Assembly (NCBI GenBank): GCA_039714495.1
Contig: JBDLJD010000001.1
Span: forward strand, 19,318 to 83,317
DNA from: Thermodesulfobacteriota bacterium
GTDB lineage: Bacteria; Desulfobacterota; Desulfobacteria; Desulfobacterales; B30-G6
Reading direction: 5' to 3'
Length of the DNA: 64,000 nucleotides
The notes beneath the pieces are model-generated. The model saw only the letters and a program-made list of their open reading frames with translations, had not been told where the DNA came from and made no database searches. Position numbers and translations under genes: made by a program. This document shows, piece after piece, positions 1-36,758 of the stretch (positions within the stretch are counted from its first letter, which is position 1; each line of letters opens with the position of its first letter).

Positions 1-375
1 AACCCGGCTTTCGCCCAAGGTGTGATGGCGGATATTTGCTTGATCTTTTTCAAACCAATGGCAGATGAAACCACAACGGGCAAATTGGCCGACGGTGCAA
101 CCGTATGCCGCCATCGACTTTTGGACGGCCATGTCATCGATATCGTCCAACGCGGAGACACGCTGTGGGAAACGCGGCTTTATGGCTCAAACCACCGCTT
201 GATGCGCATCGTAAAAGGGACGCGCAAGGAAAACCCGCCCCCGGGAGCACCATGGGGAATTGCAGATAAAATTGAATTGACCGCCCTGGAGAGACCCGGA
301 TATAAACTAGCTTTGGACCTGGTGGAAGCCATACCCATAGGGCCCGAGGATTCAAGGGGTCAAGGGGTCGAGTGA
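1..375 (+). CDS. hypothetical protein, C-terminal fragment (frame open to left window edge)
   Basis: Frame 1 has no stop from nt 1 to TGA at 373-375, so the track start at 22 is probably internal. No motif recognised. Confidence 0.4.
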   Translation, partial: NPAFAQGVMADICLIFFKPMADETTTGKLADGATVCRHRLLDGHVIDIVQRGDTLWETRLYGSNHRLMRIVKGTRKENPPPGAPWGIADKIELTALERPGYKLALDLVEAIPIGPEDSRGQGVE

Positions 376-397
376 TGACAGGGGATGGGAAAAAGAT

Positions 398-477
398 TCA
401 CCACGAAAACACGAAAAAACGAAACCACGAAAAACAGATTACATTTCGTGCTTTCAGGATTTCGTGTTTTCGTGATA
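398..477. repeat. imperfect palindromic intergenic repeat made of CACGAAA / TTTCGTG units (copy 1 of 3)
   Basis: Left arm tcaccacgaaaacacgaaaaaacgaaaccacgaaaaa, right arm tttcgtgctttcaggatttcgtgttttcgtgata. The same arm sequences recur at 5424-5486 and 23574-23649. Confidence 0.8.
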
Positions 478-515
478 AAATAATTATTAATCGTGTGACC
501 GGATAAATATTTACT

Positions 516-1775
516 ATGAAATTCAAACTGATATACCCTAAATGGGCAAAACTTGGCCGGCAATCCGAATTTCACCTGCCGCCCCATGGACCGGTTGTGT
601 TTGCCGCTTCGCTGCCGCAAGATGTTGACGTCTCCTTTGTGGACGAAAATCTTCAGTCCATCGATTTTAACGATACCGTAGATGTGGTGGGCATATCCAT
701 GATGTTGACCGTACAGGTCAAACGGGGATGGGAAATTGCCGACAGGTATCGCCGCAAGGGAATTCCGGTCATTTTCGGCGGCATCGCCACCATGCTGCAT
801 GCCGAAGAAACCGCCGAACATGCCGACGCTGTTTTTCTGGGGGAATCCGAAGGCCGCATGGAACAGGTGCTGGCGGACCTTAAAAACGGCTGTTTGAAAA
901 AAGTGTACGATTATATGGAAATGCAGCCGCCCATTGAATCCGTGGGTACGGCCCGACGGGATATTCTACAGCGCGATCTTTACAATTACAAGGGCATCCA
1001 GATGGTCGATCTGGTGCACGCTTCAAGGGGATGCCGATTTCACTGTTATCCCTGTGCCGTGGCCTACCTGGGCGGCAGAAAGTTCAGGCCGCGACCCATT
1101 GACAAAGCAATCGAAGAGATAGCCAGTATCGACAATAACCGGCTGTTTGTTGTGGACAATTCCCTTGCCCAGGACACCCAGTGGGAAATGGACCTGTTCC
1201 GGGAAATGATCCCCCTTAAAAAAAGCTGGTGCTGCCACCCCATCGAAGACAAACCAGAGGTTCTCGACCTGGCAGCACAGGCCGGGGCCTGGTATGTTTA
1301 CCAGGCGGTGTTCGACACATCGGACTTAATTCGGGAGCGCATCAAACGCTACCATGACCACGGCATCGGCGTGGAAGGCACCATTCTTCTGGGGCTGGAC
1401 CACCACACCGAGGATTTTATCAAACGCTTGATTGATTTCCTGCTTGAAATCGACCTCGACCTGGCCGAATTTACCGTTTTGACTCCCTTTCCACACACCA
1501 AAGTCTACGATGATCTCAAACAACAGGGCCGCATTTTCTCCAATGATTGGAATGATTTCTCGGCCGACAAGGTCGTGTATCACCCCAAACAGATGTCTGC
1601 CGATAAACTGCAGGGACTGCTGGATTATGCCTGGAATACATTTTATCAGGATGAGCCCCAGGAAGTGAAGATGTTCAAGCTGTTTCACAAGGTCGTTGAA
1701 AGGGAAATGGCCAACAACACCTTCAGACCGCGTAACCGGGACCTGGCTTCGCGCGCTTTTGGCCGGGCAGTTTAA
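516..1775 (+). CDS. B12-binding-domain radical SAM protein (class B rSAM, COG1032-like)
   Basis: 419-aa ORF. The N-terminal Rossmann-like region (VVGISMM...IPVIFGGIA) is typical of a cobalamin-binding domain. Radical SAM cluster motif CRFHCYPC (CxxxCxxC). Confidence 0.85.
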   Translation: MKFKLIYPKWAKLGRQSEFHLPPHGPVVFAASLPQDVDVSFVDENLQSIDFNDTVDVVGISMMLTVQVKRGWEIADRYRRKGIPVIFGGIATMLHAEETAEHADAVFLGESEGRMEQVLADLKNGCLKKVYDYMEMQPPIESVGTARRDILQRDLYNYKGIQMVDLVHASRGCRFHCYPCAVAYLGGRKFRPRPIDKAIEEIASIDNNRLFVVDNSLAQDTQWEMDLFREMIPLKKSWCCHPIEDKPEVLDLAAQAGAWYVYQAVFDTSDLIRERIKRYHDHGIGVEGTILLGLDHHTEDFIKRLIDFLLEIDLDLAEFTVLTPFPHTKVYDDLKQQGRIFSNDWNDFSADKVVYHPKQMSADKLQGLLDYAWNTFYQDEPQEVKMFKLFHKVVEREMANNTFRPRNRDLASRAFGRAV

Positions 1776-2539
1776 CGTTCCAGCAGCGACCGTACCTGTG
1801 ACATCGTTTTGGAAAGAGAAAAACGACCGTTGCCATAATCCGGTTCAACAACCGTGATCTGTTCAACCGTGATGGTGCCGGGAACTAGCGTATTCAACAG
1901 AAATCTGCCCGGTACAAACAACTTGCCGGTGCCGCCGATTTTTATTACCTGAATCTGTGCCTGACAACGCCTGGCAATTTTAAAGGCACCGTTGTTGAGA
2001 CGGCCGACGGCGCCATCCCGGCTGCGGGTCCCTTCAGGAAAGATAAACAGATTGCCGCCGGACTCAAGAAAGCCTTCCACAGACTCGATACCCTCGATCA
2101 TTAAAGCCGACAGGCCACCGTGGGCCGTAGAGGGAATATACCCCGATTGTTTCACCATCCACCCGAAAACCGGCACCTTGAAAAACCTGCCCTTGACAAT
2201 GGTTTTATGCCGGGGGAACAACGAAATCAACAGCAGTGGATCCAGGTAGGACAGATGGTTGCAAACGATGATGGAGGATCGAATAGATTTGATTTTATTT
2301 GAAATCCGCCATCTTATGCTCGGGGTCAGGCTTCTCAGGAGTAGAAAAAAGCCCCTGAAAAAGTTGTGGTTCAGGCGCTGAAAAGCGGATTCATGGCTTG
2401 CCGAAAACAGATAGGCTGCGAAAAACTGCGGTGCAAAGAGCAGAACGAACCCAACCGTAAAATAGAACCACATCAGCAAGGTGACCATCAGATCGGAAAC
2501 CGGCTTCAGATATGCATTAGAGACATTCATAATTCGCAT
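1772..2539 (-). CDS. PlsC-family 1-acyl-sn-glycerol-3-phosphate / lysophospholipid acyltransferase
   Basis: 255 aa with N-terminal TM helices. HX4D motif in CNHLSYLDP and the FPEGTRS motif. Its stop overlaps the stop of the convergent rSAM gene (TTAA at 1772-1775). Confidence 0.8.
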   Translation of the reverse strand: MRIMNVSNAYLKPVSDLMVTLLMWFYFTVGFVLLFAPQFFAAYLFSASHESAFQRLNHNFFRGFFLLLRSLTPSIRWRISNKIKSIRSSIIVCNHLSYLDPLLLISLFPRHKTIVKGRFFKVPVFGWMVKQSGYIPSTAHGGLSALMIEGIESVEGFLESGGNLFIFPEGTRSRDGAVGRLNNGAFKIARRCQAQIQVIKIGGTGKLFVPGRFLLNTLVPGTITVEQITVVEPDYGNGRFSLSKTMSQVRSLLER

Positions 2540-2621
2540 TATAGTATCTGTCAGATTAACGTTCCGAATAGACTTGAGGTGTTAGAGTATCCAGATTGTC
2601 CAGAGAATCGACCGCCTGTTT

Positions 2622-3866
2622 CTAATGCTTCTGGTTCATATTTTTTAAGATCAGACAGGTGTTCACGCCCCCAAAAGCGAAATTCTGGATAGATGCGATA
2701 CGGATATTCGCTTCAATGATTTCTGGGGCGTGCTGGATCATGGCGCATTGTTCATCGATATTGTCCAGATTCAGGGTGGGAACAATGAAACCTTCCTGCA
2801 TCATATAAATGGTCATGATCGACTCGATGGCCCCGCAGGATCCCATGGTGTGGCCGGTATAGCTTTTCAGCCCGGAAACAACGGGCGACATTCCATACAC
2901 ACTGCCGGTGGCCTGGGCTTCAATGGCATCGCCGTGCTTGGTGGCGGTGGCGTGGGCGCTGATGAAATCCACGTCATCGGGACTGACGACCGCATCCTCC
3001 AGCCCCAGCTTTATGGTCTGGGTAATGCCGCTCCGGTTGGGCAATACCAGGTCGCCGCCGTTGTTGTTGCAGGAAAAGCCGATAACCTCAGCCAGAATGT
3101 CGGCACCCCTTTTTCGCGCGGATTCATACGATTCCAGCAGAACTGCGCCGGCGCCTTCTCCCACAACCAAACCGTCACGGTCCCGGTCAAAAGGGCGGGG
3201 CGTTAAATGGGGCGTTTCATTGTAATCCGTCGAGCAGGCCATCAAATTGTCAAAAACGGCCACCGTGCTCATGTCATATTCGTCGGCCCCCCCGCAGAGC
3301 ATGGCATCCTGCATGCCGAATTTAATCATTTCATATCCGAATCCGATGGACTGGCTGCTGGTGGTGCAGGCGGTGGATGACGCGATGACCCGGCCAGTTA
3401 TACCGAACATTTTGGTGATGTTGACCGCGGTGGTGTGAACCATGAATTTCAGGTAGTCCACGGCTTTGATGGATGAGTAGCCGGCGTAGGTGTCATCGAA
3501 CAGCGCCTGATATAACTTCCTTTGCACCAGGGGACTGCCATGGGTGGACCCGAAAGCGACACCCATTCGGCCCGAAGTGATTAAATCCTCACCAGGATCG
3601 GCCATTTCCAGGGCCTCCTTGGCAACCTGGCAGGCATAATAAGAGACCGGCCCCATGGTTTTGCGGTCCCTGCGACTGAAATCGTAATCCAATCTATAAT
3701 CCACGGCTCCGAATACACCCGCATCAATATACTTGGAGTACAGATCGTCATGCTTCAGCTTTTTAACCCCGGACATCCCCTTGGTCAGATGCTCCAGGAT
3801 GTCCCTCTTTCCATGACCGATGGGTGTAATGGCCGAGCAGCCTGTGATTACGACTCTGCGTGTCAT
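2622..3866 (-). CDS. beta-ketoacyl-ACP synthase, KAS I/II (FabB/FabF-like, Cys-His-His type)
   Basis: 414 aa starting MTRRVVITGCSAITPIG. Active-site Cys context SSTACTTSS. His motifs SAHATATKHGD and YTGHTMGSCG. C-terminal FAFGGVN. Confidence 0.9.
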   Translation of the reverse strand: MTRRVVITGCSAITPIGHGKRDILEHLTKGMSGVKKLKHDDLYSKYIDAGVFGAVDYRLDYDFSRRDRKTMGPVSYYACQVAKEALEMADPGEDLITSGRMGVAFGSTHGSPLVQRKLYQALFDDTYAGYSSIKAVDYLKFMVHTTAVNITKMFGITGRVIASSTACTTSSQSIGFGYEMIKFGMQDAMLCGGADEYDMSTVAVFDNLMACSTDYNETPHLTPRPFDRDRDGLVVGEGAGAVLLESYESARKRGADILAEVIGFSCNNNGGDLVLPNRSGITQTIKLGLEDAVVSPDDVDFISAHATATKHGDAIEAQATGSVYGMSPVVSGLKSYTGHTMGSCGAIESIMTIYMMQEGFIVPTLNLDNIDEQCAMIQHAPEIIEANIRIASIQNFAFGGVNTCLILKNMNQKH

Positions 3867-3913
3867 TTTTTTATTCGCTGGTTATGTTGTTGGTGACGCT
3901 ATGCGAACAAGGG

Positions 3914-4177
3914 TCAGCTTCGGGTTTTGGCAAGCGATTCAATGTAGTCGAGGATCTGGTTAATGGTCCGGATGTCCATGGCCGCCTTTTTTTCGCTCCG
4001 GGTCAACTCCGACTTGAGCAGTGTCTCGATCTCACTCAAGAGTTCGATGGCATCGATGCTGTCAAACCCGTGCACGTCCCTCAAATCTTCGTCGAGCCCG
4101 GGGTTTTCGATTTCGAACTGTTCGCTGAAAATCCTGATTATGTCTGTTTGTGTCTGGTCTCTGTATATTGTGTTCAT
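3914..4177 (-). CDS. acyl carrier protein (dedicated, cluster-associated)
   Basis: 87 aa, acidic, with phosphopantetheine attachment motif GFDSIDAIELL. Confidence 0.85.
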   Translation of the reverse strand: MNTIYRDQTQTDIIRIFSEQFEIENPGLDEDLRDVHGFDSIDAIELLSEIETLLKSELTRSEKKAAMDIRTINQILDYIESLAKTRS

Positions 4178-4276
4178 AACTTACACGTTTCAAAAACAAT
4201 AAAACCGCTGAAAACATTCAGCAGTCTCATTGCCACATCTTAGCGAAAAAGCCAATAATATAAATTCAAGGTCAGT

Positions 4277-5167
4277 TCAATTGAATTTTTCCGGTTCGAG
4301 AAAAGGCCTGAAGTGATACCACTGCAGCGGATGTTGGCGCAGGGCCTTCTCCAGTACCCGGGCATACGCCTGTGCGGACTGGTGAATGACCACACCTCTC
4401 TCATTGCGGGATGCCGCCTTCAGGTATATGGGCTCTGCCATGGTAAATTGGTAACTGTTTTTCCCCGAGCGGAATGCAAAAAAAGTAAGAATAGGAACGC
4501 CTGACAACAGCGCAAGTATATGGGGGACTTCGGGCAGCAAAATCTCCCGCCCCAGGAACCGGACCGGAACGGTACGCTGTTCTTTTTTCCACACCAGATC
4601 ACCGGTCATGGAAACGATGCCCCCTGACTCGAGAAACTTGATGCCTTCCACCAGGTCCATGGGGGAACCGCCGTCCTTTTCAACGGCAATGATGCGGATG
4701 CCGCTTTGCACGAGGGCTTCTTTCTGCAGACGCTCGATCTTCTCCTTCTGCTTGATACCCATATACAACAGAAGGCGCAGGTCTTTTTGGTTACGCTTGA
4801 GCAAATGGGCGGCCGCCTCCCAGTTCCCCATGTGGGACATGAGCAAAATGCCGCCCCTGCCTTTGGATACCGCCTCTTCAAGGTGGTGCATGCCATCGGA
4901 GGTGTAGGTCAGTTTTCCCGGGCGCTGCAGGACAAACCGGTCCTGATACACATGGGTAAAATTATGAAATTGGCGCCAGGCGCACCACAAATGAAACAAC
5001 CAATGCCGGCCGGGGAACACGGCCCGATAGGTCCTTATGCTGTTGCCCACCCGGCCGGGAAAAAGGATGAAATATCCAGTGGCCACAAACCTGGCGAACA
5101 GCTGGAATACCCATTGCCCCATCTTTCGGGATAAAAACGTGATACTGCTGAAAAAAAAATTGTGCAT
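4277..5167 (-). CDS. LpxL/HtrB-family (lipid A biosynthesis-type) acyl-ACP-dependent acyltransferase
   Basis: Motif LLMSHMGNWEAAAH (H-x-x-NWE) with an N-terminal hydrophobic segment. Start set at ATG 5167 (MHNFFF...). The track's 5' extension to 5320 translates repeat-like sequence. Confidence 0.7.
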   Translation of the reverse strand: MHNFFFSSITFLSRKMGQWVFQLFARFVATGYFILFPGRVGNSIRTYRAVFPGRHWLFHLWCAWRQFHNFTHVYQDRFVLQRPGKLTYTSDGMHHLEEAVSKGRGGILLMSHMGNWEAAAHLLKRNQKDLRLLLYMGIKQKEKIERLQKEALVQSGIRIIAVEKDGGSPMDLVEGIKFLESGGIVSMTGDLVWKKEQRTVPVRFLGREILLPEVPHILALLSGVPILTFFAFRSGKNSYQFTMAEPIYLKAASRNERGVVIHQSAQAYARVLEKALRQHPLQWYHFRPFLEPEKFN

Positions 5168-5423
5168 GTCTCTGATTAGCTTCGAGTCATTAGGGCTTCG
5201 CCCGACATTAGCGCTGACGCGCGTTATTACGCTTCGCTGATATTTATTGTCGCAAACAGCTTGAGGACGAAGGGCAAATGACGTGCGAAGCACGATTGAG
5301 GGCCGGAGGACAAATAGCACGCTATAGCGCTAAGTGAATCCGTGAAACCCGTGTCAAACAATTAAAAAGCCCGCTTCTATTCTCAGCTTTCCGTCCTTGG
5401 TCAAGTCCTGATTAAAAATCTCC

Positions 5424-5486
5424 ATCACGAAATCACGAAAATCTTTCTGAATATTTCGTGATTTTTCGATTTCGTGTTTTCGTGAT
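5424..5486. repeat. CACGAAA/TTTCGTG palindromic repeat (copy 2 of 3)
   Basis: atcacgaaatcacgaaaatctttctgaatatttcgtgatttttcgatttcgtgttttcgtgat, directly abutting the GT2 stop codon (5487). Confidence 0.8.
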
Positions 5487-6281
5487 TCATTTTTTAGATC
5501 TCTGTCTTCTGATCTCTGGAATTCTCCCTACTCGGGCTCGTCTCAAGGGCCGGATCAGCAACCTGTGGGTTATCAAACGGGTAAAGGTGCGGGCGTTGCG
5601 CATGAAATCGACAAAAGGACGAAAGTGGGAGATCCTCGTTCCGGCCGGGGCATAGGTTACACTGACCGGCGCTTCGATTACCGGAAGGCCTGACCGGTGC
5701 GCCCTGACCAAAACCTCCAGTTCAAACTGATAGCCCCCCGCCTTGACATTCAAGTCCATGGTTTCCGGCAGCGGGTATATTCTGAAGCCGCTCTGGGTGT
5801 CGCTGACCTTTGGCCCGCCCGACAACCTGATCCAGAAATTGGAAAATTTGCGACCGAATGAGCTGGTCCACGGTACGTTGCCGCCGCTCATCCCCTTCCT
5901 GGCGCCGACGACGATGGGCCTGGCGGCATCTGGAATGGCCTGCCTGAGGATCTGGGCATCATATGGGTCATGCTGCCCATCCGCATCCAAGGTGATGGCC
6001 CATTCGGCCTTTTCCGCAGCCCGCTCGAATCCGGTCAGAAGGGCCGCCCCCTTGCCCCGGTTGCAGGTATGGTGAAGCACTTCGACATTTTCAAAACAAT
6101 GCAGCCGATCAATACCGCCATCTGTCGAGCCGTCGTCAATGACGATCACCGGCAGATGGAGGTCGAGCGCTTTTTCAACGACAGACTGCACCGTGGTACC
6201 GTGGTTGTATACAGGGATAACAACGGCAAACGCACCCTGTGATCTCCTGTCAGGGTCGCTATCCGTTGGTCCGGATAGCAT
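5487..6281 (-). CDS. family 2 glycosyltransferase (DPM1/ArnC-like, polyprenol-phosphate sugar transferase type)
   Basis: Motifs VIPVYNHG, VIVIDDGSTDG, LDADGQHDP and SGFRIYP. Start chosen at ATG 6281, which overlaps the upstream stop (TGATG at 6279-6283). The track's longer start at 6377 would overlap the upstream gene by 97 nt. Confidence 0.8.
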   Translation of the reverse strand: MLSGPTDSDPDRRSQGAFAVVIPVYNHGTTVQSVVEKALDLHLPVIVIDDGSTDGGIDRLHCFENVEVLHHTCNRGKGAALLTGFERAAEKAEWAITLDADGQHDPYDAQILRQAIPDAARPIVVGARKGMSGGNVPWTSSFGRKFSNFWIRLSGGPKVSDTQSGFRIYPLPETMDLNVKAGGYQFELEVLVRAHRSGLPVIEAPVSVTYAPAGTRISHFRPFVDFMRNARTFTRLITHRLLIRPLRRARVGRIPEIRRQRSKK

Positions 6282-7993
6282 CACGACGGTATATAGGCCA
6301 GGGCCCACGCCCCGGGGCCCATGTGGACGGCGGAGGTGAGGGAGAGGGGCTGCAGTCTTATTTCGGCATGCGGGCAACGTGCTTCAATTTCTTTTCTCAC
6401 CACATTGTCGATCCAGTCGCGGTTGTTGGAATACTCGAGCATGACAAAGGGGGAATCATTTTCATCAAAAGCGTCCTGGAACTTTTCAAGGGCAAATTTG
6501 AGCTGGCCTTTTCGATTTTTAGCGGTGCCGACCTTTATAACTCCTTCGGCCGTAGGGCTGACGATCGGTTTGACGCGCAGCAGCTCCCCGAAAACAGCCT
6601 TGGCCTTGGGCATCCGGCCTCCCGCAGCCAGATATTTAAGCCGGTCCAGACACATGTATTCCCAACTGGATGCCACCACTTTATGTGCAAAGTCAACCAC
6701 CGCCTGCGGGTCATGATTTTGGGCCGCAAATCGAGCCGTGGCAAGGGCGATGGACCCCAGGCGTCCGGAAGCTGCGCCCGTGTCAATGATGGTCAGGCGG
6801 TCCTCAGGATCGTTCCGGGCTTTCCAGTCGACGGCCACATCGTAATTGCCCGTGAAAGCAGACCCCACACAGAGGTAAAGCACATGTTCATACTGATTCA
6901 CGACCCGTTGATAATACTGATGGCGTTCAAACACGGAAGCCTGAGATGTGGAAACCCGGGTGCCTTGCAGCATGGTGTCATAAAGCTCTTCCGGAGAAAA
7001 TAGGGTCTCGGGCAGCGATTTTTCACCGGCAACAATGTAGCTGTCCAAAAGGGTGAGCCCCAGTTCCCGGGCATCCTCACGGGTCACCGAGCCGGCCGCA
7101 TCCGTCATGATATGAACAGCACCCCTTTGCTGCTGGCGCTTGAAGTCCTTTATCTGGGATGCAAGATCGTCATCCTCCCAGCGCACGACATCTCCCAGGG
7201 ACTCGATTTGTGCCTTGGCCTCACGGGAGCTGTCAGTATGCAGATGGACTTTTATGAAATTCTTGTGGGGAATGACTACAACGCTTTCGCCTTGTTGAGA
7301 AAACCTCTCGATGGTTTCCTTATTTTCAGCACTTTGCTGGATGACCGTATCGATGCAAAAGCCGTCCTCCTCCGTGGCCTGGTAGGACGGCGCGATTTCA
7401 AGCAGCCCCTGGAATATGGTTGAAATTGACCGGAATCCATTGTGCTGGCCGATAAGGCGCCTGAAAAAGCCCTCCAGGAAGATGTACAGTCCCAGGGCGC
7501 CGGAGTCCACCACACCGGCCTGTTTCAGCGTGGGCAACAGCTCGGGCGTCGTCCTCACAGACTCTTCCAGAACATCCATGATCCTGTCCACATATTCCAC
7601 ACTGCTTTCAAAATCACGGGTGCTTAAAAAGTCAACCAGGTCGTCCAATAAGGTCAGCATGGTGCCGGCCACAGGCTGGCGAACGGCCCGCTGGGCTTTG
7701 TCCCTGCCGGAGGCCATCGCCTGGGCCAGGGTGGTATGGGATTCCGAATCCAGGAGGCCTGAAAAGAACTGGGCCGCGATATTGCCGGAATTACCCCTGG
7801 CGGACATCAGCAGACTGAAATTTGTATCGTCCGGGTTTTCTTCCAGATATCGCAACGGCGTGAGACTGGCAATCAGGTTGCGCCCTGTATCGCCGTCGGC
7901 CACAGGAAAAACATTGATGTCATCCAGGACGTCCGACCAGGCGGCCACCCTTTCAACGCCGTTAATAAGTGCTTTTGTAAAATCTGGTGTCAT
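6281..7993 (-). CDS. DhaL(Dak2)-domain / DegV-domain fusion protein (fatty-acid-kinase-like)
   Basis: 570 aa. N-terminus has VFPVADGDTGRNL (DhaL/Dak2 motif). The C-terminal ~280 aa are colinear with DegV (AVHIMTDAAGSV, LKYLAAGGRMPKAKAVFGELLRVKPIV, HMGPGAWALAY). Confidence 0.8.
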   Translation of the reverse strand: MTPDFTKALINGVERVAAWSDVLDDINVFPVADGDTGRNLIASLTPLRYLEENPDDTNFSLLMSARGNSGNIAAQFFSGLLDSESHTTLAQAMASGRDKAQRAVRQPVAGTMLTLLDDLVDFLSTRDFESSVEYVDRIMDVLEESVRTTPELLPTLKQAGVVDSGALGLYIFLEGFFRRLIGQHNGFRSISTIFQGLLEIAPSYQATEEDGFCIDTVIQQSAENKETIERFSQQGESVVVIPHKNFIKVHLHTDSSREAKAQIESLGDVVRWEDDDLASQIKDFKRQQQRGAVHIMTDAAGSVTREDARELGLTLLDSYIVAGEKSLPETLFSPEELYDTMLQGTRVSTSQASVFERHQYYQRVVNQYEHVLYLCVGSAFTGNYDVAVDWKARNDPEDRLTIIDTGAASGRLGSIALATARFAAQNHDPQAVVDFAHKVVASSWEYMCLDRLKYLAAGGRMPKAKAVFGELLRVKPIVSPTAEGVIKVGTAKNRKGQLKFALEKFQDAFDENDSPFVMLEYSNNRDWIDNVVRKEIEARCPHAEIRLQPLSLTSAVHMGPGAWALAYIPS

Positions 7994-7995
7994 GA

Positions 7996-8415
7996 CTAAA
8001 ATCCAAGTGTTTTGCGGATATCTTCCGGAATCTCGAACAGTATTTCCGTTTCCGGATATTTAACAGCAACCTGCTCGCTCCTGCCTTTTGCGCACAAGAT
8101 TCCGTTATTGTTCAATCTTATTTCAAAGTCAACCACGATTTTATAACGCGCCTCCTTCACCACGGCCTTGCAGGTAAATTTATCGCGCTGGCGCAGGGAG
8201 ACGATGTGCTTGGTTGCGGTCTTGATGATCGGAAAAAGTATATTGGTGCGTTTGTAATATTTTACCGGGTCAAACCCCAGCGCGTAACAGAGCTCCTCCC
8301 GGGTGGTATCGAAATATTTCAGGTAATTTCCATGCCAGACCACCTGCATGGGGTCCAGGTCGTAAAAGGGCACGGTAAACTTTTTTTCGTGGCTTATAAA
8401 GTTCTGTTTCTTCAT
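7996..8415 (-). CDS. hotdog-fold acyl-CoA/acyl-ACP thioesterase (4HBT/YbgC-like)
   Basis: 139 aa. VPFYDLDPMQVVWHGNYLKYFD is typical of the 4HBT-type catalytic Asp region. Ends 2 nt upstream of the DhaL-DegV start. Confidence 0.75.
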   Translation of the reverse strand: MKKQNFISHEKKFTVPFYDLDPMQVVWHGNYLKYFDTTREELCYALGFDPVKYYKRTNILFPIIKTATKHIVSLRQRDKFTCKAVVKEARYKIVVDFEIRLNNNGILCAKGRSEQVAVKYPETEILFEIPEDIRKTLGF

Positions 8416-8695
8416 CTCAATCCATTCATTGGAAACAGGCTTGGAAAATTTATTCCACCCATGACTAAGCGCTTCAAATACCTGACACTTCTTGTTAAGT
8501 CAAGTTGTAGATAGCGATCCCCCTTGACTAAGAAAAGCAAATCTGGAATAAGGGGGCGATTTAAACGGAAAATGCCAAAAAGAAGATCGTGTGTTATTCC
8601 GAAAACACGGCGTCATGGGTGGCGACATTCAATCTATAATTCCAATGTGCAAAGAGCTGAAAAGTTATCAATTTTAACGTTTAAGGAATCACTGC

Positions 8696-9541
8696 ATGAA
8701 CATTTTACATATCTCTGATCTTCATTTCGGCCCCCGTCACTGGGAGGGAGACGACAATATTCTTCTGAAGAAGATTAACTCGTACGATGCCGATATTGTT
8801 ATCAACACTGGAGACAGTACGACAGATGGTCTGGAAGATGAGTATGCAGAGGCAGGACGCTTCTTAAAAGCTATCGAGTGCAAAAATGTTATCTCCATCA
8901 TCGGGAATCACGACAAAAGAAATATGCGCTCGCATGAACTATTCCTGAAATATATTTTCGATCCAAAGATCTTCTCCCCGTCTGAAATGACACAAACCAC
9001 CAAGAAAAACCTTTTTTTGGACCGGGAGATAACCAAGGTCAGTGAAAATTTCACCGATTTAAATTTTATAAAAACCATCCCTGTAAATGGAAAATCTGTA
9101 TTGATTATCGGCATCGATTCCAATGAACTTTACACCGATGTGGGGTTTGTTGAAGAAGAGATCTTACATGCCGTTTCAGACAAAATCAATCAGATGGAAG
9201 ATGACGTGGCGCTGCTACTGACCCATCATTCCATTTTAGGCACCGATGAAGAACCCCTTAAGAATTCCTTACGCGTAATTGATTTTGTAAGGAAGCACAA
9301 AATCGAAAACGTCTTTTGCGGCCATACCCACGAACTTGAACTGAGACGAACCACCGATCTATATCACGGGCATTCCTTTACCCAGTTTATGTGCGGTACT
9401 CTGTCTTCTTGCAATCATGCCAACGATGACAACATGTTCCTGTATTATGAAAACTTGGGCAGCGATAATATGCACCTGTACCTGGTACGGATTTTTCCGG
9501 AGGAGGGCAAGGTGCATTTCAAAGAGGAACGGGTCTTTTAG
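8696..9541 (+). CDS. calcineurin-like metallophosphoesterase
   Basis: Motifs ILHISDLHFG, NTGDSTTDG, GNHD, THHS and CGHTH. Gene is noticeably AT-rich. Confidence 0.8.
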   Translation: MNILHISDLHFGPRHWEGDDNILLKKINSYDADIVINTGDSTTDGLEDEYAEAGRFLKAIECKNVISIIGNHDKRNMRSHELFLKYIFDPKIFSPSEMTQTTKKNLFLDREITKVSENFTDLNFIKTIPVNGKSVLIIGIDSNELYTDVGFVEEEILHAVSDKINQMEDDVALLLTHHSILGTDEEPLKNSLRVIDFVRKHKIENVFCGHTHELELRRTTDLYHGHSFTQFMCGTLSSCNHANDDNMFLYYENLGSDNMHLYLVRIFPEEGKVHFKEERVF

Positions 9542-9625
9542 GCAGCATTTTATAAAAAAGACTGACACCTTGCAGAAAAAGACGCACTGAAGACTCCAGC
9601 GCTCAATACAAATGCAAACCCATAA

Positions 9626-10900
9626 TTATTCGGAGGGTTTTGCGCTTTCCGACCGAAACCTTCCGGTCGGATCAAACTTTTTTAATACATCCAGCACATA
9701 TTCAATATCAGCGGGAGTATGATCGGCGTTTACCTGAAAACGGATCTCCTCATCTCCCCTGGGCACAACCGGAAAATTCAGTCCGGTAGCCAGGACACTG
9801 TTGTCGGTGAGCCATTGGACGATTGCGGCGGTGCGGGGCGTATCCCCGACCATCAGCGGCACCACGGGATGATCACCGGGAATCGTTTCAAAACCCAGAT
9901 CCAGCAGCCCCTTTTCAAATTTTTTCGTCATCTGATAAAGGTGTTCAAGCCGCTGCATACCCTGCGGGCCGTCAAGAATTTCCAGCGCTTTGAGCGAAGC
10001 AGCCGCTTCAGAACAGGTAATGGGGTTTGAATAGATATACATGGGAGCGCTTTCCCGGAGATATTCGATCAGGGTAGTAGAACCTGTCACATACCCTCCG
10101 TTTACCCCCAACGCCTTGCCCAGGGTACCCACCAAGACATCTACCCGGGCTCCGGTATACTCTTCTGTTCCGCGGCCGGTTTTGCCGAGCGCGCCGACCC
10201 CATGGGAATCATCTGCAATGGTAGTTACACCCTCTATAAACCGGTCTTCATATTTTCGGCAGATGGACACCAGTTCATCCAATGGCGCATGATCGCCGCG
10301 CATACTGAAAATGCCGTCCGTGATGACAAGGCAGCGCTTGCCCTCTTCCACAGCACCCTGCAGTTTGGTTTCCAGATCCTGCATGTCGTTATGGCGGTAA
10401 ATCAATTTTGCCGCCGGCCGGGCCAGCCGCATGGCCTGGATGATGCAGTTATGATTCAGCTCATCACTGATGATAACGGTTTCAGGTGTTGTCAAGGGAA
10501 AGATCACGCCCAGACTGGTTACATAGGCGGAGCTGAACAGCATGGCCGCCTTACGTCCGTGAAAGTGGGCCAGTTTCTTTTCCAGCTCGATATGAGGCCG
10601 GTAGGTTCCGCTGATAAACCGAACAGCTCCGGGACCTGCCCCGAATTCACGGGCGGCTTTTTCCTCGGCTTCGATGACGTCCTCAACCATGGTTATACCA
10701 AGGTATGAATTGGCGTTCATCCTGATAAATTCGCGGTTTCCGTGTCCGGCGACAAGGTAGCGCGGCCCCCTGTTGCCCGAGGCCCGGATCACCTTTTCGA
10801 TGATCATCTCGGGTCCCTTATCCCTTCCACCGGCCCGCAGTTCATCCAGATTCTTATGTAAGGCCGTATCCAGTTTTGACGATATCATAGTTACCCTCAT
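9626..10900 (-). CDS. kbl: 2-amino-3-ketobutyrate CoA ligase (glycine C-acetyltransferase), alpha-oxoamine synthase family
   Basis: Colinear with the Kbl/AONS family (NSYLG, DELNHNCII, DDSHGVG, PLP-lysine GTLGKALG). Lies immediately downstream of tdh. Confidence 0.8.
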   Translation of the reverse strand: MRVTMISSKLDTALHKNLDELRAGGRDKGPEMIIEKVIRASGNRGPRYLVAGHGNREFIRMNANSYLGITMVEDVIEAEEKAAREFGAGPGAVRFISGTYRPHIELEKKLAHFHGRKAAMLFSSAYVTSLGVIFPLTTPETVIISDELNHNCIIQAMRLARPAAKLIYRHNDMQDLETKLQGAVEEGKRCLVITDGIFSMRGDHAPLDELVSICRKYEDRFIEGVTTIADDSHGVGALGKTGRGTEEYTGARVDVLVGTLGKALGVNGGYVTGSTTLIEYLRESAPMYIYSNPITCSEAAASLKALEILDGPQGMQRLEHLYQMTKKFEKGLLDLGFETIPGDHPVVPLMVGDTPRTAAIVQWLTDNSVLATGLNFPVVPRGDEEIRFQVNADHTPADIEYVLDVLKKFDPTGRFRSESAKPSE

Positions 10901-10963
10901 ATGAGTGGTTATTTCCGGTGTCCTTCATTCACAAGTTTATACTCTTTTCTGAAATGGGATGCC

Positions 10964-11989
10964 TTATTTCCAATTCAAAACCACCTTTCCCGAATGACCG
11001 CTGTTCATGACATCGAACCCTTTCTGAAAATCGTCTACGGAAAACCGATGGGTAATGATCGGACGGATATTCAACCCGGACTGTAGAATGCTGACCATCT
11101 TGTACCATGTCTCGAATATTTCCCGGCCATAGATCCCCTTGAGGGTCAGCCCCTTGAAAATCACCTGGTTCGTGTCCAGGGCCGGCGGCTTGGCGTAAAT
11201 GCCGAGCATGGCGATTTTACCACCGTGGTTCATATTTTCGAGCATTTCGTGAAATGCGCCTGGAACGCCCGACATTTCCAGGCCCACATCGAACCCCTCG
11301 CGCATACCCAGCTCTTTCTGCACATCCCTGATGCGCTCCCGGCTGACATTCACCGTGCGGAAATTGCCAAGCTTGGATGCCAGTTCCAGGCGATAGTCAT
11401 TCACATCGGTAATCACGACATATCGGGCCCCGACATGTCCGGCCAGTGTTGCGGCCATGATTCCGATGGGTCCGGCACCGGTGATCAGGACATCCTCCCC
11501 CACCAGATTAAACGACAGGGCCGTATGGGCGGCATTTCCAAAGGGATCGAGGATGGCGGCGATTTCGTCTTCAATATTATCAGGCAGGTGAAAGGCGTTG
11601 CCGGCGGGAATGGACAGATATTCGGCAAAAGCACCGCTACGATTGACCCCGACCCCGACTGTATTGCGGCACAGATGGCGTTTACCGGCCCTGCAGTTTC
11701 GGCAGTAACCACAGGTGATGTGGCCCTCTCCTGAAACGCGGTCGCCTACCTTTATTCCGGTGACCTCTTTACCGACACGATCCACGATTCCGACAAACTC
11801 ATGACCGATAATCATTGGGGTTTTAATGGTTTTTTGGGACCATTCATCCCAGTTGAAAATATGCAGGTCCGTCCCGCAGATGGCTGTCTGCTGAATTTTG
11901 ATGCGAATGTCGTTCCCGTTTAAAACCGGTTCCGGCATCTCCTGCAGCCAAAGACCGGGCTCCGGCGCTGCTTTGACCAAGGCCCTCAT
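10964..11989 (-). CDS. tdh: L-threonine 3-dehydrogenase (Zn-dependent MDR family)
   Basis: 341 aa. Motifs [33 protein letters not shown] and GAGPIG. Paired with kbl. Confidence 0.9.
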
Positions 11990-12013
11990 ACGAATCTCCT
12001 CTTGTATTGACTG

Positions 12014-12474
12014 CTAATAATAATCCACCCACTTTCGGATGGCATCCAGGTAGATAACTGTTTCTGAAGACAATATCCCGCCGATCTGGTTGAGATCTTC
12101 CATCAAAAAAGAGCGTAGTTCTTCGCGGGAATGGAAAAAACTTCCGCTAAAAGATCGTGACGCCCGGTGGCATTGATCACCGATCTGACACCGCTCAACC
12201 GAGCGATTTTTTCCATAATCTGACGATGATCCCTTTTTTCCAGACTCATACCCACCAGGGCAACGATGCTGTTTTCAAAATAGAGTGGATTCACTTGAGC
12301 CGTGATTTTAAGCAGGCCCTCGGCGATCATCTTGCCTACCCTCAAACGGATGGTACCGTCGGAAAGATCCAGCTTCCCGGCGATGTTCTTGAATGATGCC
12401 CTGCCGTATTTTTGAAGCTCGACAATGATTTGCCGGTCAATATCATCAGGCAGATATTTTTGTGATTTGACCAT
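12014..12474 (-). pseudogene. Lrp/AsnC-family transcriptional regulator interrupted by a 1-nt frameshift in a homopolymer
   Basis: Frame a reads MVKSQKYLPDDIDRQIIVELQKYGRASFKNIAGKLDLSDGTIRLRV...RHDLLAEVF and stops at 12103. After the A6 run (plus 12135-12140) the adjacent frame reads FHSREELRSFLMEDLNQIGGILSSETVIYLDAIRKWVDYY to TAG at 12014-12016. One extra A/T restores a 153-aa Lrp-length protein. Confidence 0.7.
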
Positions 12475-12604
12475 AATAGCCCAACTTCTCTGATATGAAT
12501 TCTTTGTAAACCCCGTCTTTTTCCTAGGATAAATCAAATTTGGGTCCCGCTATTTTCCAAGTTTCAATATATTTTCGCCCAACAAGGATGTCAACAATGA
12601 ACCT

Positions 12605-12633
12605 CCCCGCCGCAAGCGACGGGGTATCAAAAT
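12605..12633 (+). repeat. GC-rich REP-like hairpin unit A (ccccgccgcaagcgacggggtatcaaaa)
   Basis: Stem ccccg/cgggg around cgcaagcg, followed by GGGGTATCAAAA. A near-identical unit sits at 12697-12727. Confidence 0.7.
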
Positions 12634-12649
12634 TGATAAAGACCTGATT

Positions 12650-12955
12650 TTAATGGGGGACACGTAGTTTCCCCCAAACCCCCTTCCACTTGCTTACCCC
12701 ACCGCAAGCGGGTGGGGTATTCAAAAGCGAATAATAAACTGTTTGCTTTTTCAGACAACCAAGAATGACCTGCTCGGAGATATTCAAAACAGAAGCAATC
12801 ATCAGATTCTGGGCGACTGCCGGCTTTATGATCTTCTCAAGATAAAACTCATTATTAAACCGCTTATCGATGGTTGTTTCGTAATGCCAGTGCAGATATG
12901 AGCTATTCGATGCCTCCCGGGGGATGCTCTTCGGCTTATACCCTGAGCGCATCAT
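12650..12955 (-). CDS. hypothetical small protein (doubtful; 3' end runs into a REP-like hairpin)
   Basis: 101-aa AT-rich ORF with no recognisable motif. The last ~25 codons translate hairpin unit B. Confidence 0.25.
   Translation of the reverse strand: MMRSGYKPKSIPREASNSSYLHWHYETTIDKRFNNEFYLEKIIKPAVAQNLMIASVLNISEQVILGCLKKQTVYYSLLNTPPACGGVSKWKGVWGKLRVPH
12697..12727 (+). repeat. GC-rich REP-like hairpin unit B (ccccaccgcaagcgggtggggtattcaaaag)
   Basis: 7-bp stem ccccacc/ggtgggg with loop gcaagcg and tail GTATTCAAAAG. A degenerate third unit (gcccaaaggtgggtattttcataagg) lies at about 12984-13009. Confidence 0.7.
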
Positions 12956-13098
12956 TTATTATCCGGTCTTTCATAGTATCAGCCGCCCAAAGGTGGGTAT
13001 TTTCATAAGGCATTAGGGGCGTTTCCCTTTAAATATATTCCGCTACATGATCGGGCCATGTTGTTCTTGAGCCGGAATTTGCAATAACGCTGGTCGGT

Positions 13099-14466
13099 TT
13101 AGGAGAAAAAAGTGGCATGGATGGCATTCACGGCCCGGCTCAGATTTTTTGTTTTGGCCAGAAAATAAAGCGCGGCCCGTGACGGCCCGAATGATATCAT
13201 TTCCACGTTGACCCCCCCTTTTGCTACCGCCGTAAAACAGCGTGCCGCGATTCCTTTCTTTTGAAATAAACCTTCACCCACGATGCTGACCAGTGCCAGG
13301 TCGTCCACTGTCTCAACGGTTCGGTAGGGCTTCGGGGCAATGGTTTTAAGCGCCTGTCGTCCGGCTTCCAAATCACTGCCGGCCAGCAGGAGGCTGATAC
13401 ACGTTTGAGAGGTGACCACCGATTTGATGTTGATACCGTTGTCCGTCAGACTGCCGGCAACAAGGGCCAGAATCCCCGGCCTGGCCCCAACCCCTGAGGC
13501 ATGTACCTTGAGAATGCCGATGTCGGTATCATGGGCAACACTTTTGATGATGCTCTTGTGCCTCGGGCTGCGGGCCGTGATCAGGCTTCCGGGGGCGTCG
13601 GGGTTTAATGTGTTTTTGATTTCAACCTTGATTTTTTTTCTGCGTACCGGTTCCATGGCACGTGGGTGGAGAATACCGGCCCCGAAATAAGCCAACTCCG
13701 CAGCCTCGCTATAGGAAAGTACCGGTATCAGCTTTGCAGCAGAAACCAGATTAGGGTCCGCACTCATGAATCCGTCCACATCTTTCCAGATTTCAAGAAG
13801 CGCAGCTTTTGCAGCGACGGCAGCCACCGCAGCCGAGTAATCCGATCCACCGCGCCCGAAGGTTGTGATATCACCGGTTTTGCTGACCCCGTAAAAACCA
13901 GGAATAAACAGGATAGCATCTTTTTTCAGCAGTGGATTGATGTATTGCTGAAAATTCCGGGTGGTCTGCTTCAGATCGGCGGTGGCATCACCAAACTTTC
14001 CGTCGGTGAGCATGCCTATTTTATGCGGCATCCGGCAGGTCGCTTTGATTCCCCGGCTTCGTAGGATGGCGGTAAGCAGCCGAGCGCTGAAGCGCTCTCC
14101 AAAACTACTGACGATATCATGCAGGCGGGGAGATATTTCTCTTGTAAAATTAAGACCATAGTAAAGCCGTTCGAGTTTGCCGATGTTTTTATTCAAATCA
14201 CGATTGAATTTACCACAATCCTTGCGGTTTTTGATCAGATAGCGGGCAATCAACATGTGTCGGGCTTTTAATCGGCTGATGATTCCCGGAATATTTTCAT
14301 CACTTTCAAGGGCCATGTTCATGCCGTCGATCAGCATGTCGGTGATGCCGTACAAGGCCGATACGACAATGATATGGCCCTTTGCTCTTTCTTCAACGAG
14401 GTCGAGAATTCGGGCGATTGTATTTTTGCCGTGTAGACATCCGCCGCCGATTTTAATTACTTTCAT
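13099..14466 (-). CDS. aspartate kinase (LysC-III-like, with C-terminal ACT domains)
   Basis: 455 aa. Motifs KIGGG and TFGRGGSDYSAAVAA, AELAYFGAGILHP, and a C-terminal pair of ACT-like repeats (LVSIVGEGL...). Confidence 0.85.
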   Translation of the reverse strand: MKVIKIGGGCLHGKNTIARILDLVEERAKGHIIVVSALYGITDMLIDGMNMALESDENIPGIISRLKARHMLIARYLIKNRKDCGKFNRDLNKNIGKLERLYYGLNFTREISPRLHDIVSSFGERFSARLLTAILRSRGIKATCRMPHKIGMLTDGKFGDATADLKQTTRNFQQYINPLLKKDAILFIPGFYGVSKTGDITTFGRGGSDYSAAVAAVAAKAALLEIWKDVDGFMSADPNLVSAAKLIPVLSYSEAAELAYFGAGILHPRAMEPVRRKKIKVEIKNTLNPDAPGSLITARSPRHKSIIKSVAHDTDIGILKVHASGVGARPGILALVAGSLTDNGINIKSVVTSQTCISLLLAGSDLEAGRQALKTIAPKPYRTVETVDDLALVSIVGEGLFQKKGIAARCFTAVAKGGVNVEMISFGPSRAALYFLAKTKNLSRAVNAIHATFFS

Positions 14467-14525
14467 TATTTTCCCTTAAGCTAGACGCACCCTTGACTTT
14501 TGCCAATTTATAATGCGGGTGCCAG

Positions 14526-15458: not shown

Positions 15459-15534
15459 GATTGACTCCTTATTTTTGTTTTCAAGTATTGCGTAGTAAAT
15501 TTAAATGCCTGATTATATGTATTATTTTTGTCAT

Positions 15535-17668: not shown

Positions 17669-17746
17669 ACAGAACGTCCGGTAGGCTATAACGCAGGCAA
17701 GCTATGCGGCAGATCGATTGTCGTTGCTGATATTTGTGCTGAATAG

Positions 17747-32862: not shown

Positions 32863-33198
32863 GGAAGGTTTATTTAACTGCCCGTTTTAGGTTAAAATTT
32901 TCTTGTATATTTTTGAGTAGCAGGCTATATATCTTCATTTAATATATTACTTAATACAATATATAGTATATTTCGCGTTTTTTTAGAATACAATGTTTTC
33001 ATTCATTGTTAATAAATATCCACTTATGAACATCGCCTTGAAAAATGTACACAACCGGGCTGTTCTTTATACGTATTCAACACATTTATTGAAAACCTTT
33101 TATCAAATTAAATTAAATATAGTCAATTTATTATAGACTTATTAGTTTTATTGACACTCTATACTTATACTTATTTTAAATTTAAATAAGGAATAGAT

Positions 33199-36758
<3,560 letters not shown>

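Follow-up and report, generated by a model that had tools for sequence, protein, structure and literature searches.

Few kinds of bacterial biosynthetic gene cluster are as widespread as the aryl-polyene type. Near the left end of a 64,000-nucleotide stretch of DNA from a Thermodesulfobacteriota bacterium (GenBank contig JBDLJD010000001.1, positions 19,318 to 83,317; hereafter the window) lie seven co-directional genes for lipid-assembling enzymes and, convergent with them, a gene for a B12-binding radical S-adenosylmethionine (SAM) protein that we call rSAM419. This region probably forms the right-hand half, the lipid-anchor arm, of a larger cluster of aryl-polyene-like, ladderane type, which is common in sulfate reducers and conserved across Desulfobacterota, resembles type II polyketide synthase/fatty acid synthase systems, measures about 27 kb with about 22 genes, and is cut by the window edge; the same degree of confidence extends to the general working of the arm proposed below. 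The cluster family has already been recognized bioinformatically and its product is uncharacterized. The new elements are the integration of a thioesterase with a single-chain kinase, the splitting of the aryl-polyene protein ApeJ into two, and the highly conserved rSAM419. An earlier reading of the same DNA, made from its letters alone (the sequence-only reading), had described the seven genes as an "orphan" operon, a description contradicted by relatives that carry both arms and by the window's first 375 nucleotides, which belong to a lipoprotein gene of the other arm.

The eight open reading frames (ORFs) of the sequence-only reading were all found where it had placed them in the ORF list of the window, and its domains, motifs and junctions were likewise borne out, the domains by Pfam and NCBIfam profile searches and the junctions by direct reading. 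Together with the partial gene at the edge, the features are:

1 to 375, plus strand: 3′ half (124 codons) of a gene for a lipoprotein of about 225–233 amino acids, in the LolB/ApeN position and DUF3261-like; cut by the window edge
516 to 1775, plus strand: rSAM419, a B12-binding-domain radical SAM protein of 419 amino acids (Pfam B12-binding, 33.8 bits)
1772 to 2539, minus strand: PlsC-type acyltransferase, ApeD-like, with the motif NHLSYLD (HX4D) (Pfam Acyltransferase, 73.5 bits)
2622 to 3866, minus strand: ApeR-type beta-ketoacyl-acyl carrier protein synthase (KAS), C167/H305/H339 triad, 40% identical to ApeR
3914 to 4177, minus strand: dedicated acyl carrier protein (ACP) with the serine motif DSID (Pfam PP-binding, 34.3 bits)
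4277 to 5167 (probable start; ORF to 5320), minus strand: LpxL/PatA-family acyltransferase with the motif HMGNWE (Pfam Lip_A_acyltrans, 62.5 bits)
5487 to 6281, minus strand: DPM1/PpgS-like family 2 glycosyltransferase (GT2) (Pfam Glycos_transf_2, 78.7 bits)
6281 to 7993, minus strand: predicted single-chain fatty acid kinase (Pfam Dak2, FakA-like_M and DegV)
7996 to 8415, minus strand: hotdog thioesterase, ApeK-like (Pfam 4HBT_2 and 4HBT)

The genes are tightly packed at several points. The PlsC-type and rSAM419 genes share a TTAA stop/stop overlap (1772–1775), the kinase stop and the GT2 start codon overlap in TGATG (6283–6279), and the thioesterase TAG (7998–7996) is separated from the kinase ATG at 7993 by a gap of 2 nt (7995–7994).

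Gene order at the window edge and in relatives

Read in frame 1, nucleotides 1–375 are 67% identical, ungapped over 124 amino acids, to residues 110–233 of a lipoprotein encoded at 9159–9857 of a related locus, L005 (L numbers denote loci of relatives). These nucleotides therefore encode half of a lipoprotein gene, and the window edge cuts the cluster. The lipobox cysteine is present in full-length homologues of the protein. DUF3261 matched 5 of 15 members of the family, all below threshold (best E 0.0045), and an hhalign comparison of the family with the single E. coli ApeN sequence was not significant. The lipoprotein gene follows that for LolA in 52 of 58 loci.

Close homologues of both rSAM419 and the kinase fusion number in the hundreds among Desulfobacterota genomes and metagenomes. 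The gene order of the window is kept, and then continues, in L001 (with a 79% identical fusion), L002, L003 (Desulfatitalea tepidiphila), L005 (with a 91% identical rSAM protein) and L089. Beyond rSAM419, these relatives encode the 225–233-residue lipoprotein, LolA, a ketoreductase (KR) and an ApeP-like dehydratase (DH). A divergent arm follows, with an ACP, a 722-residue fusion of ketosynthase (KS) and chain length factor (CLF), the "ladder" B12-radical SAM protein of family TIGR04072, and an ApeI-like dehydratase. At the far end, as seen in metagenome loci of the window lineage, are a fusion of about 1,020 residues between an MMPL protein and a methyltransferase, a NodB-like deacetylase, an LCM-type methyltransferase, and a CLF and a KS, after which comes an unrelated ABC transporter. 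In L089, a contig from a relative whose kinase fusion is 88% identical, the PlsC-type gene, the rSAM419 homologue and the whole other arm are found together. The relatives that carry genes of both arms (L001, L005 and L089) have proteins 79–91% identical to those of the window. The apparent lack of KR/DH and LolA/MMPL genes in the sequence-only reading is thus a window-edge artefact: LolA, the KR, both dehydratases, a second ACP, the KS-CLF and the MMPL-methyltransferase lie directly beyond the radical SAM gene in L001, L005 and L089. The cluster does continue beyond nucleotide 1, as nucleotides 1–375 and these three relatives indicate, an outcome that the sequence-only reading had itself named as one that would overturn it. 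An "orphan" call made at a window edge needs a look past that edge.

Synteny was sampled with one genome per GTDB species, and the best 80 of 553 stretches encoding an rSAM419 relative were kept. Among loci with at least 4 kb upstream of rSAM419, the lipoprotein-LolA-KR-DH series is kept in 52–53 of 58; with at least 9.5 kb upstream, the ACP, KS-CLF and ladder radical SAM genes are kept in 37–42 of 48. Downstream, three or more genes of the window module are retained in 32 of the 49 loci with at least 8 kb of sequence; in the other 17 the module is not beside the radical SAM arm. Of 50 loci that extend at least 8 kb past rSAM419 on the downstream side, 29 encode the kinase. The gene arrangement is not due to chance.

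Two architectures were distinguished. In the window type, mostly from Desulfobacterales, the module converges on rSAM419 and starts with the thioesterase gene. Type B comprises 31 loci, from Desulfocapsa, Desulforhopalus, Desulfopila, Desulfobulbus and others; here the module is co-directional, and the place of its first gene is taken by one for an ApeH-like ligase. Genes resembling ApeH or tyrosine ammonia-lyase were found neither in the window nor in window-type relatives viewed across the whole cluster (L005, L089, L093). The 31 type-B loci do encode the ApeH-like ligase, as does a more distant cluster, L096. An aromatic ammonia-lyase of the tyrosine or histidine type is encoded in L048, L054 and L096, and a coumarate-ligase-like gene occurs in some members. 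The earlier statement that no ammonia-lyase or adenylation gene is present therefore holds as far as the visible window-type relatives show.

Relatives differ from the window in several further genes. Many carry extra radical SAM genes, for example one for a 496-residue BchE/HpnR-like B12-radical SAM protein after the PlsC-type gene (L003 12516–14006 and others); many also have two small radical SAM genes (about 332 and about 365 codons) beside a third ACP gene, and L097 encodes a SPASM-domain radical SAM protein at 17274–18320. The window lacks these genes, its PlsC-type gene lying immediately beside rSAM419, and lineages thus differ in how many radical SAM genes they carry. Desulfatitalea loci (L003 18194–18865; also L004 and L016) have two small genes between the kinase and GT2 genes, absent from the window, for a TRL-domain lipoprotein (Lsa14-like, E 3e-9) and a 121-residue protein without a family match. 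Finally, L019 (CAZHPS010000070.1) holds two divergent rSAM419 homologues, and no other query gene was detected in their surroundings.

Ape counterparts, the kinase fusion and rSAM419

The proteins were compared by BLASTP with those of the E. coli CFT073 ape cluster, and six of the seven anchor-arm proteins matched an Ape protein. The thioesterase matches ApeK (27% identity, E 8e-19) and the PlsC-type enzyme ApeD (29%, E 2.5e-17), while the KAS matches ApeR over its full length (40%, E 1e-102; 26% to ApeO). The match of the ACP to ApeF is weak (27%, E 0.005). The GT2 aligns with residues 8–231, the N-terminal half, of ApeJ (31%, E 1e-25) and the LpxL-like enzyme with residues 358–553, its C-terminal half (30%, E 3e-15). 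Since these two proteins match separate halves of ApeJ, the bifunctional enzyme has been split into two adjacent genes. Among proteins of the relatives, the KR matches ApeQ (47%, E 1e-73), the second ACP matches ApeE (36%, E 3e-12), the KS-CLF matches ApeO plus ApeC, LolA matches ApeL, and ApeI also finds a match; Pfam searches returned ApeI-like and ApeP-like domains and LolA. The kinase fusion and rSAM419 are the only members without an Ape counterpart. Because its proteins match the Ape set in this way, the arm in the window is the lipid-anchor set of an aryl-polyene cluster, a resemblance that the sequence-only reading had seen. Its further statement that this is not a recognizable aryl-polyene cluster is not supported, since the anchor enzymes and the ApeR-type KS match and the remaining core is found in relatives. 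With the core defined as in Grammbitter et al. 2020 (KS apeO/R, ACP apeE/F, CLF apeC, DH apeI/P, KR apeQ and transporter apeM), the window would thus contribute anchor enzymes and an ApeR-type KS, relatives the rest of the core, and the window lineage none of the aryl-starter genes, as judged from homology.

Profile searches placed the individual enzymes in the same light. The best NCBIfam match of the KAS is PRK09116, at 414 bits with a cutoff of 470. Identification as housekeeping FabF, AcpP, PlsC or LpxL was rejected, as all fell far short of their NCBIfam cutoffs (FabF 297 versus 494 bits, ACP 25.8 versus 70.5, PlsC domain 66.9 versus 103, LpxL 21 versus 298). The GT2 is closest to the polyprenyl-phospho-GalNAc synthase PpgS (E 4e-22, below cutoff), which suggests transfer of a sugar onto a lipid phosphate, and the LpxL-like protein to a phosphatidylinositol-mannoside acyltransferase (58 bits, cutoff 209), which suggests acylation of that sugar. 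In its broader proposal, of a lipid that is glycosylated and carries several acyl chains, the sequence-only reading is supported.

Compared as wholes, the ape clusters of E. coli CFT073 and Xenorhabdus doucetiae share with the window the ApeK, ApeJ, ApeR and ApeD families and with its relatives ApeQ, ApeE, ApeO/ApeC, ApeI, ApeP, ApeL and an MMPL protein. Unlike them, the present cluster has ApeJ divided between two genes and a FakA-FakB single-chain kinase inserted. It has one to five radical SAM genes, where canonical ape clusters have none. In the relatives the KS and CLF are fused, the MMPL protein is fused to a methyltransferase and a NodB-like deacetylase is present. Neither ApeH nor ApeG is seen in the window-type lineage, and the host is an anaerobic sulfate reducer.

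The sequence-only reading had called the product of the 6281–7993 gene a DhaL-DegV fusion. The domains are correct, and the protein is more precisely described as a FakA(N+L)-FakB fusion. Its residues 5–296 match the FakA/YloV models of NCBIfam in their N-terminal and middle domains only, and residues 293–569 match the NCBIfam DegV model end to end (158 bits, cutoff 99.7), with Pfam DegV covered from position 2 to 279 of 280; the fusion falls short of the NCBIfam FakA and FakB equivalog cutoffs. Matches in the PDB were to FakA_N (8vip/7rm7, E 6e-27), FakA (7w7h) and numerous chains of FakB/DegV type. Across 112 aligned full-length homologues, N27, D33, D35, T36, D163, C213, H250, H252, R460 and H557 are invariant, N68 is present in 97% and S350/S353 in 98–100%. 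Residues N27, D33, D35, T36, N68 and D163 align to S. aureus FakA Asn32, Asp38, Asp40, Thr41, Asn82 and Asp185 in the 8vip/7rm7 alignment. C213, H250 and H252 lie inside the Pfam FakA-like_M match (residues 211–282) and correspond by motif (GxC, HxH), not by structure, to the FakA triad Cys240/His282/His284. R460 belongs to an invariant GGR motif some 172 residues after the start of the DegV domain; the offset of the 6alw alignment is consistent with FakB1 Arg173, although this is not a residue-by-residue equivalence.

The fusion lacks the FakA_C docking domain for a separate FakB; the DegV/FakB domain is fused in its position. In S. aureus, for which the nucleotide/Mg residues and the Cys-His-His triad have been defined, FakA_NL alone is catalytically active and binds FakB about ten times more weakly (PMC9136124). 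FakB, unlike FakA_C, carries an arginine at, or stabilizing, the carboxylate (PMC10848957; the significance of this arginine also in PMC9136124). With FakB in place of FakA_C, the partner that presents the substrate would be held in position by simple means. On the strength of the FakA_NL activity, the FakB arginine and the domain replacement, we read the fusion as a single-chain fatty acid kinase. It resembles Firmicutes FakA/FakB in the nucleotide/Mg site of the N domain, the Cys-His-His triad of FakA_L, and a full DegV/FakB domain in which an Arg, a Ser and a His that may correspond to those of FakB are conserved, and differs from them in being one polypeptide, in a Gram-negative anaerobe, inside a specialized-lipid cluster. 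Proteins of this architecture are not rare; homologues that cover the full length at 36–49% identity fall into about 65 representative clusters.

A thioesterase gene directly upstream of the kinase gene is a further likeness to Firmicutes. In E. faecalis and S. pneumoniae, a thioesterase (TesS/TesE) and Fak convert acyl-ACP to free acid and then to acyl-phosphate for PlsY, a route that can bypass PlsX (PMC12288450). Members of the subfamily to which the window thioesterase belongs are always encoded immediately before the kinase fusion. Translational coupling links the kinase gene to both of its neighbors in the window and in type-B clusters, where it overlaps the two. Solitary, overlapping thioesterase-kinase pairs also occur, at L095 9588–11704 (GCA_054007915.1) and L098 9604–11785 (GCA_054920695.1), one beside an acyl-CoA dehydrogenase gene and the other a few kb from yidC-jag-mnmE, near dsrC; the pair is therefore a portable unit. 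The window thioesterase is 54–58% identical to those of the solitary pairs. In the searchable literature, we found no paper linking DegV or Fak to aryl-polyene or ladderane clusters.

A distant relative shows the same pair inside a single co-directional block. L096 (JGI 3300021561, Ga0226655_10001053, 83–16004) encodes a fusion only 36% identical to that of the window, in the order thioesterase, kinase, radical SAM, KS, GT2, LpxL-type. It also encodes a phosphopantetheinyl transferase (ACPS), two small radical SAM proteins, an aromatic ammonia-lyase, a 4-coumarate-ligase-like protein and two different thioesterases, of which the one adjacent to the kinase is 46% identical to that of the window and the other 23%. 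A PlsY-family paralogue in the block scores 90 bits on TIGR00023 over its full length, below the cutoff of 137. The block is followed by three genes without a family match and one for a thaumatin-domain protein.

The most conserved protein of the cluster is rSAM419, with a median identity of 79% over 84 loci, compared with 46–60% for its neighbors, and a range of 77–91% across the best 80 of the 553 stretches. In L096, where the kinase is only 36% identical, its homologue between the kinase and the ApeR-like KS is 66% identical. We found no explanation for so strong a constraint. Its CX3CX2C cysteines (C173/C177/C180) are invariant, Pfam B12-binding matches residues 18–118 (33.8 bits, cutoff 32.1), and Pfam Radical_SAM scores 23.8 bits, below cutoff. 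The motif together with the N-terminal B12-binding domain makes it a predicted class B enzyme. There is a single further invariant cysteine (C239), which makes an auxiliary cluster unlikely. The protein falls short of every NCBIfam family (best TIGR04013, 57 bits, cutoff 251), and identification as the "ladder" radical SAM protein was rejected at 49 bits on TIGR04072 (cutoff 360). Among solved structures, AprD4 (6fd2, E 4e-7) is nearest in sequence. An AlphaFold2 model was too poor to compare (mean predicted local distance difference test score 54.6), the alignment of 18 sequences at 79–90% identity being too shallow. The gene is almost always beside the lipoprotein gene or within the anchor module, and for this reason rSAM419 is counted with the anchor-and-export side rather than with chain building. 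It probably modifies the lipid or an acyl intermediate.

A candidate route and its competitors

From gene content, homologies, synteny and conserved catalytic residues we infer the following substrates, order of steps and product, with the Xenorhabdus aryl polyene lipid as the model. That lipid has a glycerol-phosphate-GalNAc backbone carrying an ordinary fatty acyl chain and a conjugated one, the latter set in place by ApeD, and ApeJ joins the aryl polyene to the sugar (bioRxiv 10.1101/2020.12.19.423268). In the present case, making and modifying an unsaturated acyl chain would fall to the chain-building arm known from relatives, working on its own ACP with the KS-CLF, the KR, the ApeI- and ApeP-like dehydratases, the TIGR04072 B12-radical SAM protein and methyltransferases. 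The hotdog thioesterase would then release an acyl chain from its carrier thioester, and the translationally coupled kinase would hold the free acid in its DegV domain and phosphorylate it with ATP. A PlsY-type enzyme would use the acyl-phosphate for the sn-1 position of glycerol-3-phosphate, which would make the pair a hard-wired form of the Firmicutes bypass of PlsX. A second chain would be started or extended by the ApeR-type ketosynthase with the ACP, and set at sn-2 by the ApeD-like PlsC enzyme; ApeR is reported to be needed for initiation and to act as an initiating ketosynthase in vitro (PMC8253772). The PpgS/DPM1-like GT2 (ApeJ-N) would add a hexosamine to the lipid phosphate, a NodB-like deacetylase being encoded in the other arm, and the LpxL/PatA-like acyltransferase (ApeJ-C) would acylate the sugar with the ACP-bound specialized chain. 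LolA, the lipoprotein and the MMPL protein would finally bring the product to the outer membrane. The predicted phosphatidyl-hexosamine backbone, with specialized chains delivered from an ACP and subsequent Lol-like/MMPL export, would follow the logic of the aryl polyene lipid.

We further suggest, as a tentative idea that is possible rather than probable, that the thioesterase and kinase form a dedicated gate, which passes a radical-SAM-modified, polyketide-like acyl chain from its private ACP to glycerolipid synthesis as acyl-phosphate, that rSAM419 performs an undescribed lipid modification, and that the product belongs to a new class of outer-membrane glycerophospho-hexosamine lipids of sulfate reducers. 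If true, a Gram-negative anaerobe would possess a natural, hard-wired bypass of PlsX, and a tractable, culturable model would be at hand for radical SAM chemistry shared with the anammox ladderane cluster.

In any case, "ladderane-type" clusters outside anammox bacteria have been without an assigned product since 2009, and the complete Ape-like lipid-anchor arm of the Desulfobacterota version points to a concrete product class, an acylated phosphatidyl-hexosamine exported by LolA/MMPL. Two components have no counterpart in studied ape clusters, namely the thioesterase-coupled FakA-FakB kinase and a radical SAM protein conserved at about 79% across orders. Cultured carriers include Desulfatitalea tepidiphila, D. 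alkaliphila, Desulforhopalus, Desulfopila and Hydrosulfovibrio, which opens these predictions to lipidomics and enzymology.

Several observations weigh against the cluster assignment and the proposed working of its arm. No product of the cluster family is known, and the chain-building arm comes from relatives and not from the window's own genome. The ApeF and ApeN correspondences appear weak, and the chain may not be an aryl polyene, as no aryl-starter genes are visible in the window-type lineage. A PlsY gene was found in only 1 of 98 loci, and in none of the window-type clusters. In the 31 type-B loci it is the ApeH-like ligase gene, not a thioesterase gene, that precedes the kinase gene, which does not fit a strict thioesterase-then-kinase relay. 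The kinase may serve general lipid metabolism, given that thioesterase-kinase pairs occur far from such clusters. Lastly, no ladderanes were found in Desulfotalea psychrophila, the cluster of which is syntenic with that of Kuenenia (Rattray et al. 2009; PMC2649909).

Another role for the kinase would be activation of the starter unit: a free fatty or other carboxylic acid, once phosphorylated, would pass to the neighboring ACP for extension by the ApeR-type KS, so that the kinase would stand in for the missing ApeH ligase. The ACP, the ApeR-like KAS and the kinase do share an operon, the behavior of ApeR in vitro would suit this role, and the conversion of acyl-phosphate to acyl-ACP is known as PlsX-type chemistry (PMC12288450). 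No ApeH or tyrosine ammonia-lyase is visible in window-type clusters, and type B has an ApeH-like ligase. However, type-B clusters and L096 have both this ligase and the kinase. No PlsX-like transacylase was seen in any cluster examined, the PlsY-family protein of L096 points to acylation of glycerol-3-phosphate, and a thioesterase directly upstream makes little sense for starter loading. We therefore consider starter activation unlikely.

The portability of the thioesterase-kinase pair also bears on whether it belongs to the pathway at all. It could be a housekeeping device that recycles free fatty acids beside the cluster, leaving only the GT2, the LpxL-like enzyme, the ACP, the KAS, the PlsC-type enzyme and rSAM419 in the pathway. 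The solitary pairs stand in unrelated neighborhoods, the window thioesterase is closer to theirs (54–58% identity) than to ApeK (27%), and its gene is the outermost of the operon. On the other hand, the kinase stop overlaps the GT2 start, the type-B kinase gene is internal and overlaps both of its neighbors, the pair of L096 sits mid-cluster and overlaps the radical SAM gene, and the kinase is retained in the 29 of 50 loci noted above. A housekeeping role for the pair is accordingly also improbable.

As to the chain itself, the relatives carry side by side an ACP, KS plus CLF, a FabZ-like DH and a radical SAM protein that passes the TIGR04072 equivalog (408 bits in L003 and 391 in L005, cutoff 360). 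Anammox Cluster I has the same set of genes (amxACP, amxFabZ, amxFabF2/FabFmut and a B12-radical SAM protein; bioRxiv 10.64898/2026.05.19.726425). The likeness to Cluster I and to the Desulfotalea psychrophila cluster of Rattray et al. 2009 also includes two small radical SAM proteins, a ligase and a glycosyltransferase. Clusters that antiSMASH labels "ladderane" have been reported, with unknown function, in Desulfobacterota metagenome-assembled genomes (PMC9902471). Together with the Kuenenia-Desulfotalea synteny, the likeness would allow the cluster to make ladderanes or ladderane-like cyclized lipids, as its antiSMASH and NCBIfam label suggests, with the window arm esterifying them into phospholipids. 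We regard this as very unlikely. D. psychrophila has no detected ladderanes, and such lipids are known solely from anammox Planctomycetota (PMC9902471). Their core, moreover, lies outside the window, and some members have an ammonia-lyase (tyrosine/histidine) and a coumarate-ligase-like gene. The other genes best match aryl-polyene or flexirubin systems (ApeQ, FlxB, LolA2): the LolA of L005 has flexirubin LolA2 as its best NCBIfam match, its KR scores 303 bits against FlxB (cutoff 340), and an aromatic ammonia-lyase is a flexirubin-like trait of L096, L054 and L048. Unlike flexirubin and xanthomonadin clusters, the present one reaches no equivalog cutoff and shows no ammonia-lyase in the window-type lineage; flexirubin and xanthomonadin clusters are not known to have radical SAM genes or the kinase fusion.

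Least credible of all is a self-contained orphan operon that lacks a chain-building partner, captures its chain with DegV/DhaL and KAS/ACP and assembles a glycolipid alone: the window holds no KR, DH, CLF, LolA or MMPL gene, its right flank is unrelated and the module is away from the radical SAM arm in 17 of 49 loci, yet the window begins within a gene that belongs to the other arm, both arms share a contig in the closest relatives (L005 and L089), and the synteny extends over two architectures and a distant cluster in addition to the Ape counterparts of six of the seven proteins.

Flanking genes and other features of the window

To the right of the thioesterase gene lie genes for a metallophosphoesterase, kbl and tdh, which are syntenic with the cluster in 0 of 98 related loci. 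As they recur in no locus, the cluster ends at 8415, and a link of these genes to the operon was rejected. The kbl and tdh products, identified from their translations, are a 424-residue kbl-type 2-amino-3-ketobutyrate CoA ligase and a 341-residue threonine 3-dehydrogenase, encoded by two minus-strand ORFs at 9626–11989. The former is an alpha-oxoamine synthase and could be mistaken for a serine palmitoyltransferase; its tdh partner and the missing synteny argue for ordinary threonine catabolism.

Within the operon, homology of the LpxL-type ORF to its L001 orthologue begins only at residue 49. The ATG at 5167 is therefore the likely start, which leaves 319 nt (5168–5486) after the GT2 stop without homology-supported coding. 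The mechanical extension of the ORF to 5320 has no similarity to orthologues, and at the same junction L001 has 24 nt and L002 about 270 nt. The 5168–5486 interval could be an internal promoter or regulatory region. A promoter and terminator scan of positions 1–9700 was uninformative, returning 11 and 15 sites with 9.7 and 11.9 expected. Searches of the whole window for tRNA genes and Rfam families found none.

Farther to the right, a probable chromosomal replication origin lies at 29491–36758, centered at about 32.9–33.2 kb. GC content falls to 0.39 at 32–34 kb, where the cumulative GC skew reaches its minimum and the genes switch from mostly minus to mostly plus strand. There dnaN (33199–34317) is followed by gyrB (34317–36758), with no dnaA upstream of dnaN, and a divergent UvrD-like helicase of 1,123 residues with an unassigned N-terminal part of about 460 residues is encoded at 29491–32862. 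The lipid cluster lies about 25–33 kb from this candidate origin. Within 42550–46627, a gene for an 842-residue radical SAM protein (Radical_SAM_N2, Radical_SAM and DUF2344) is directly upstream of that for RNase E/G, and yidC follows at 47673–49340. The same order of radical SAM, RNase G and yidC genes is found in L098, so this is a conserved housekeeping neighborhood outside the lipid cluster.

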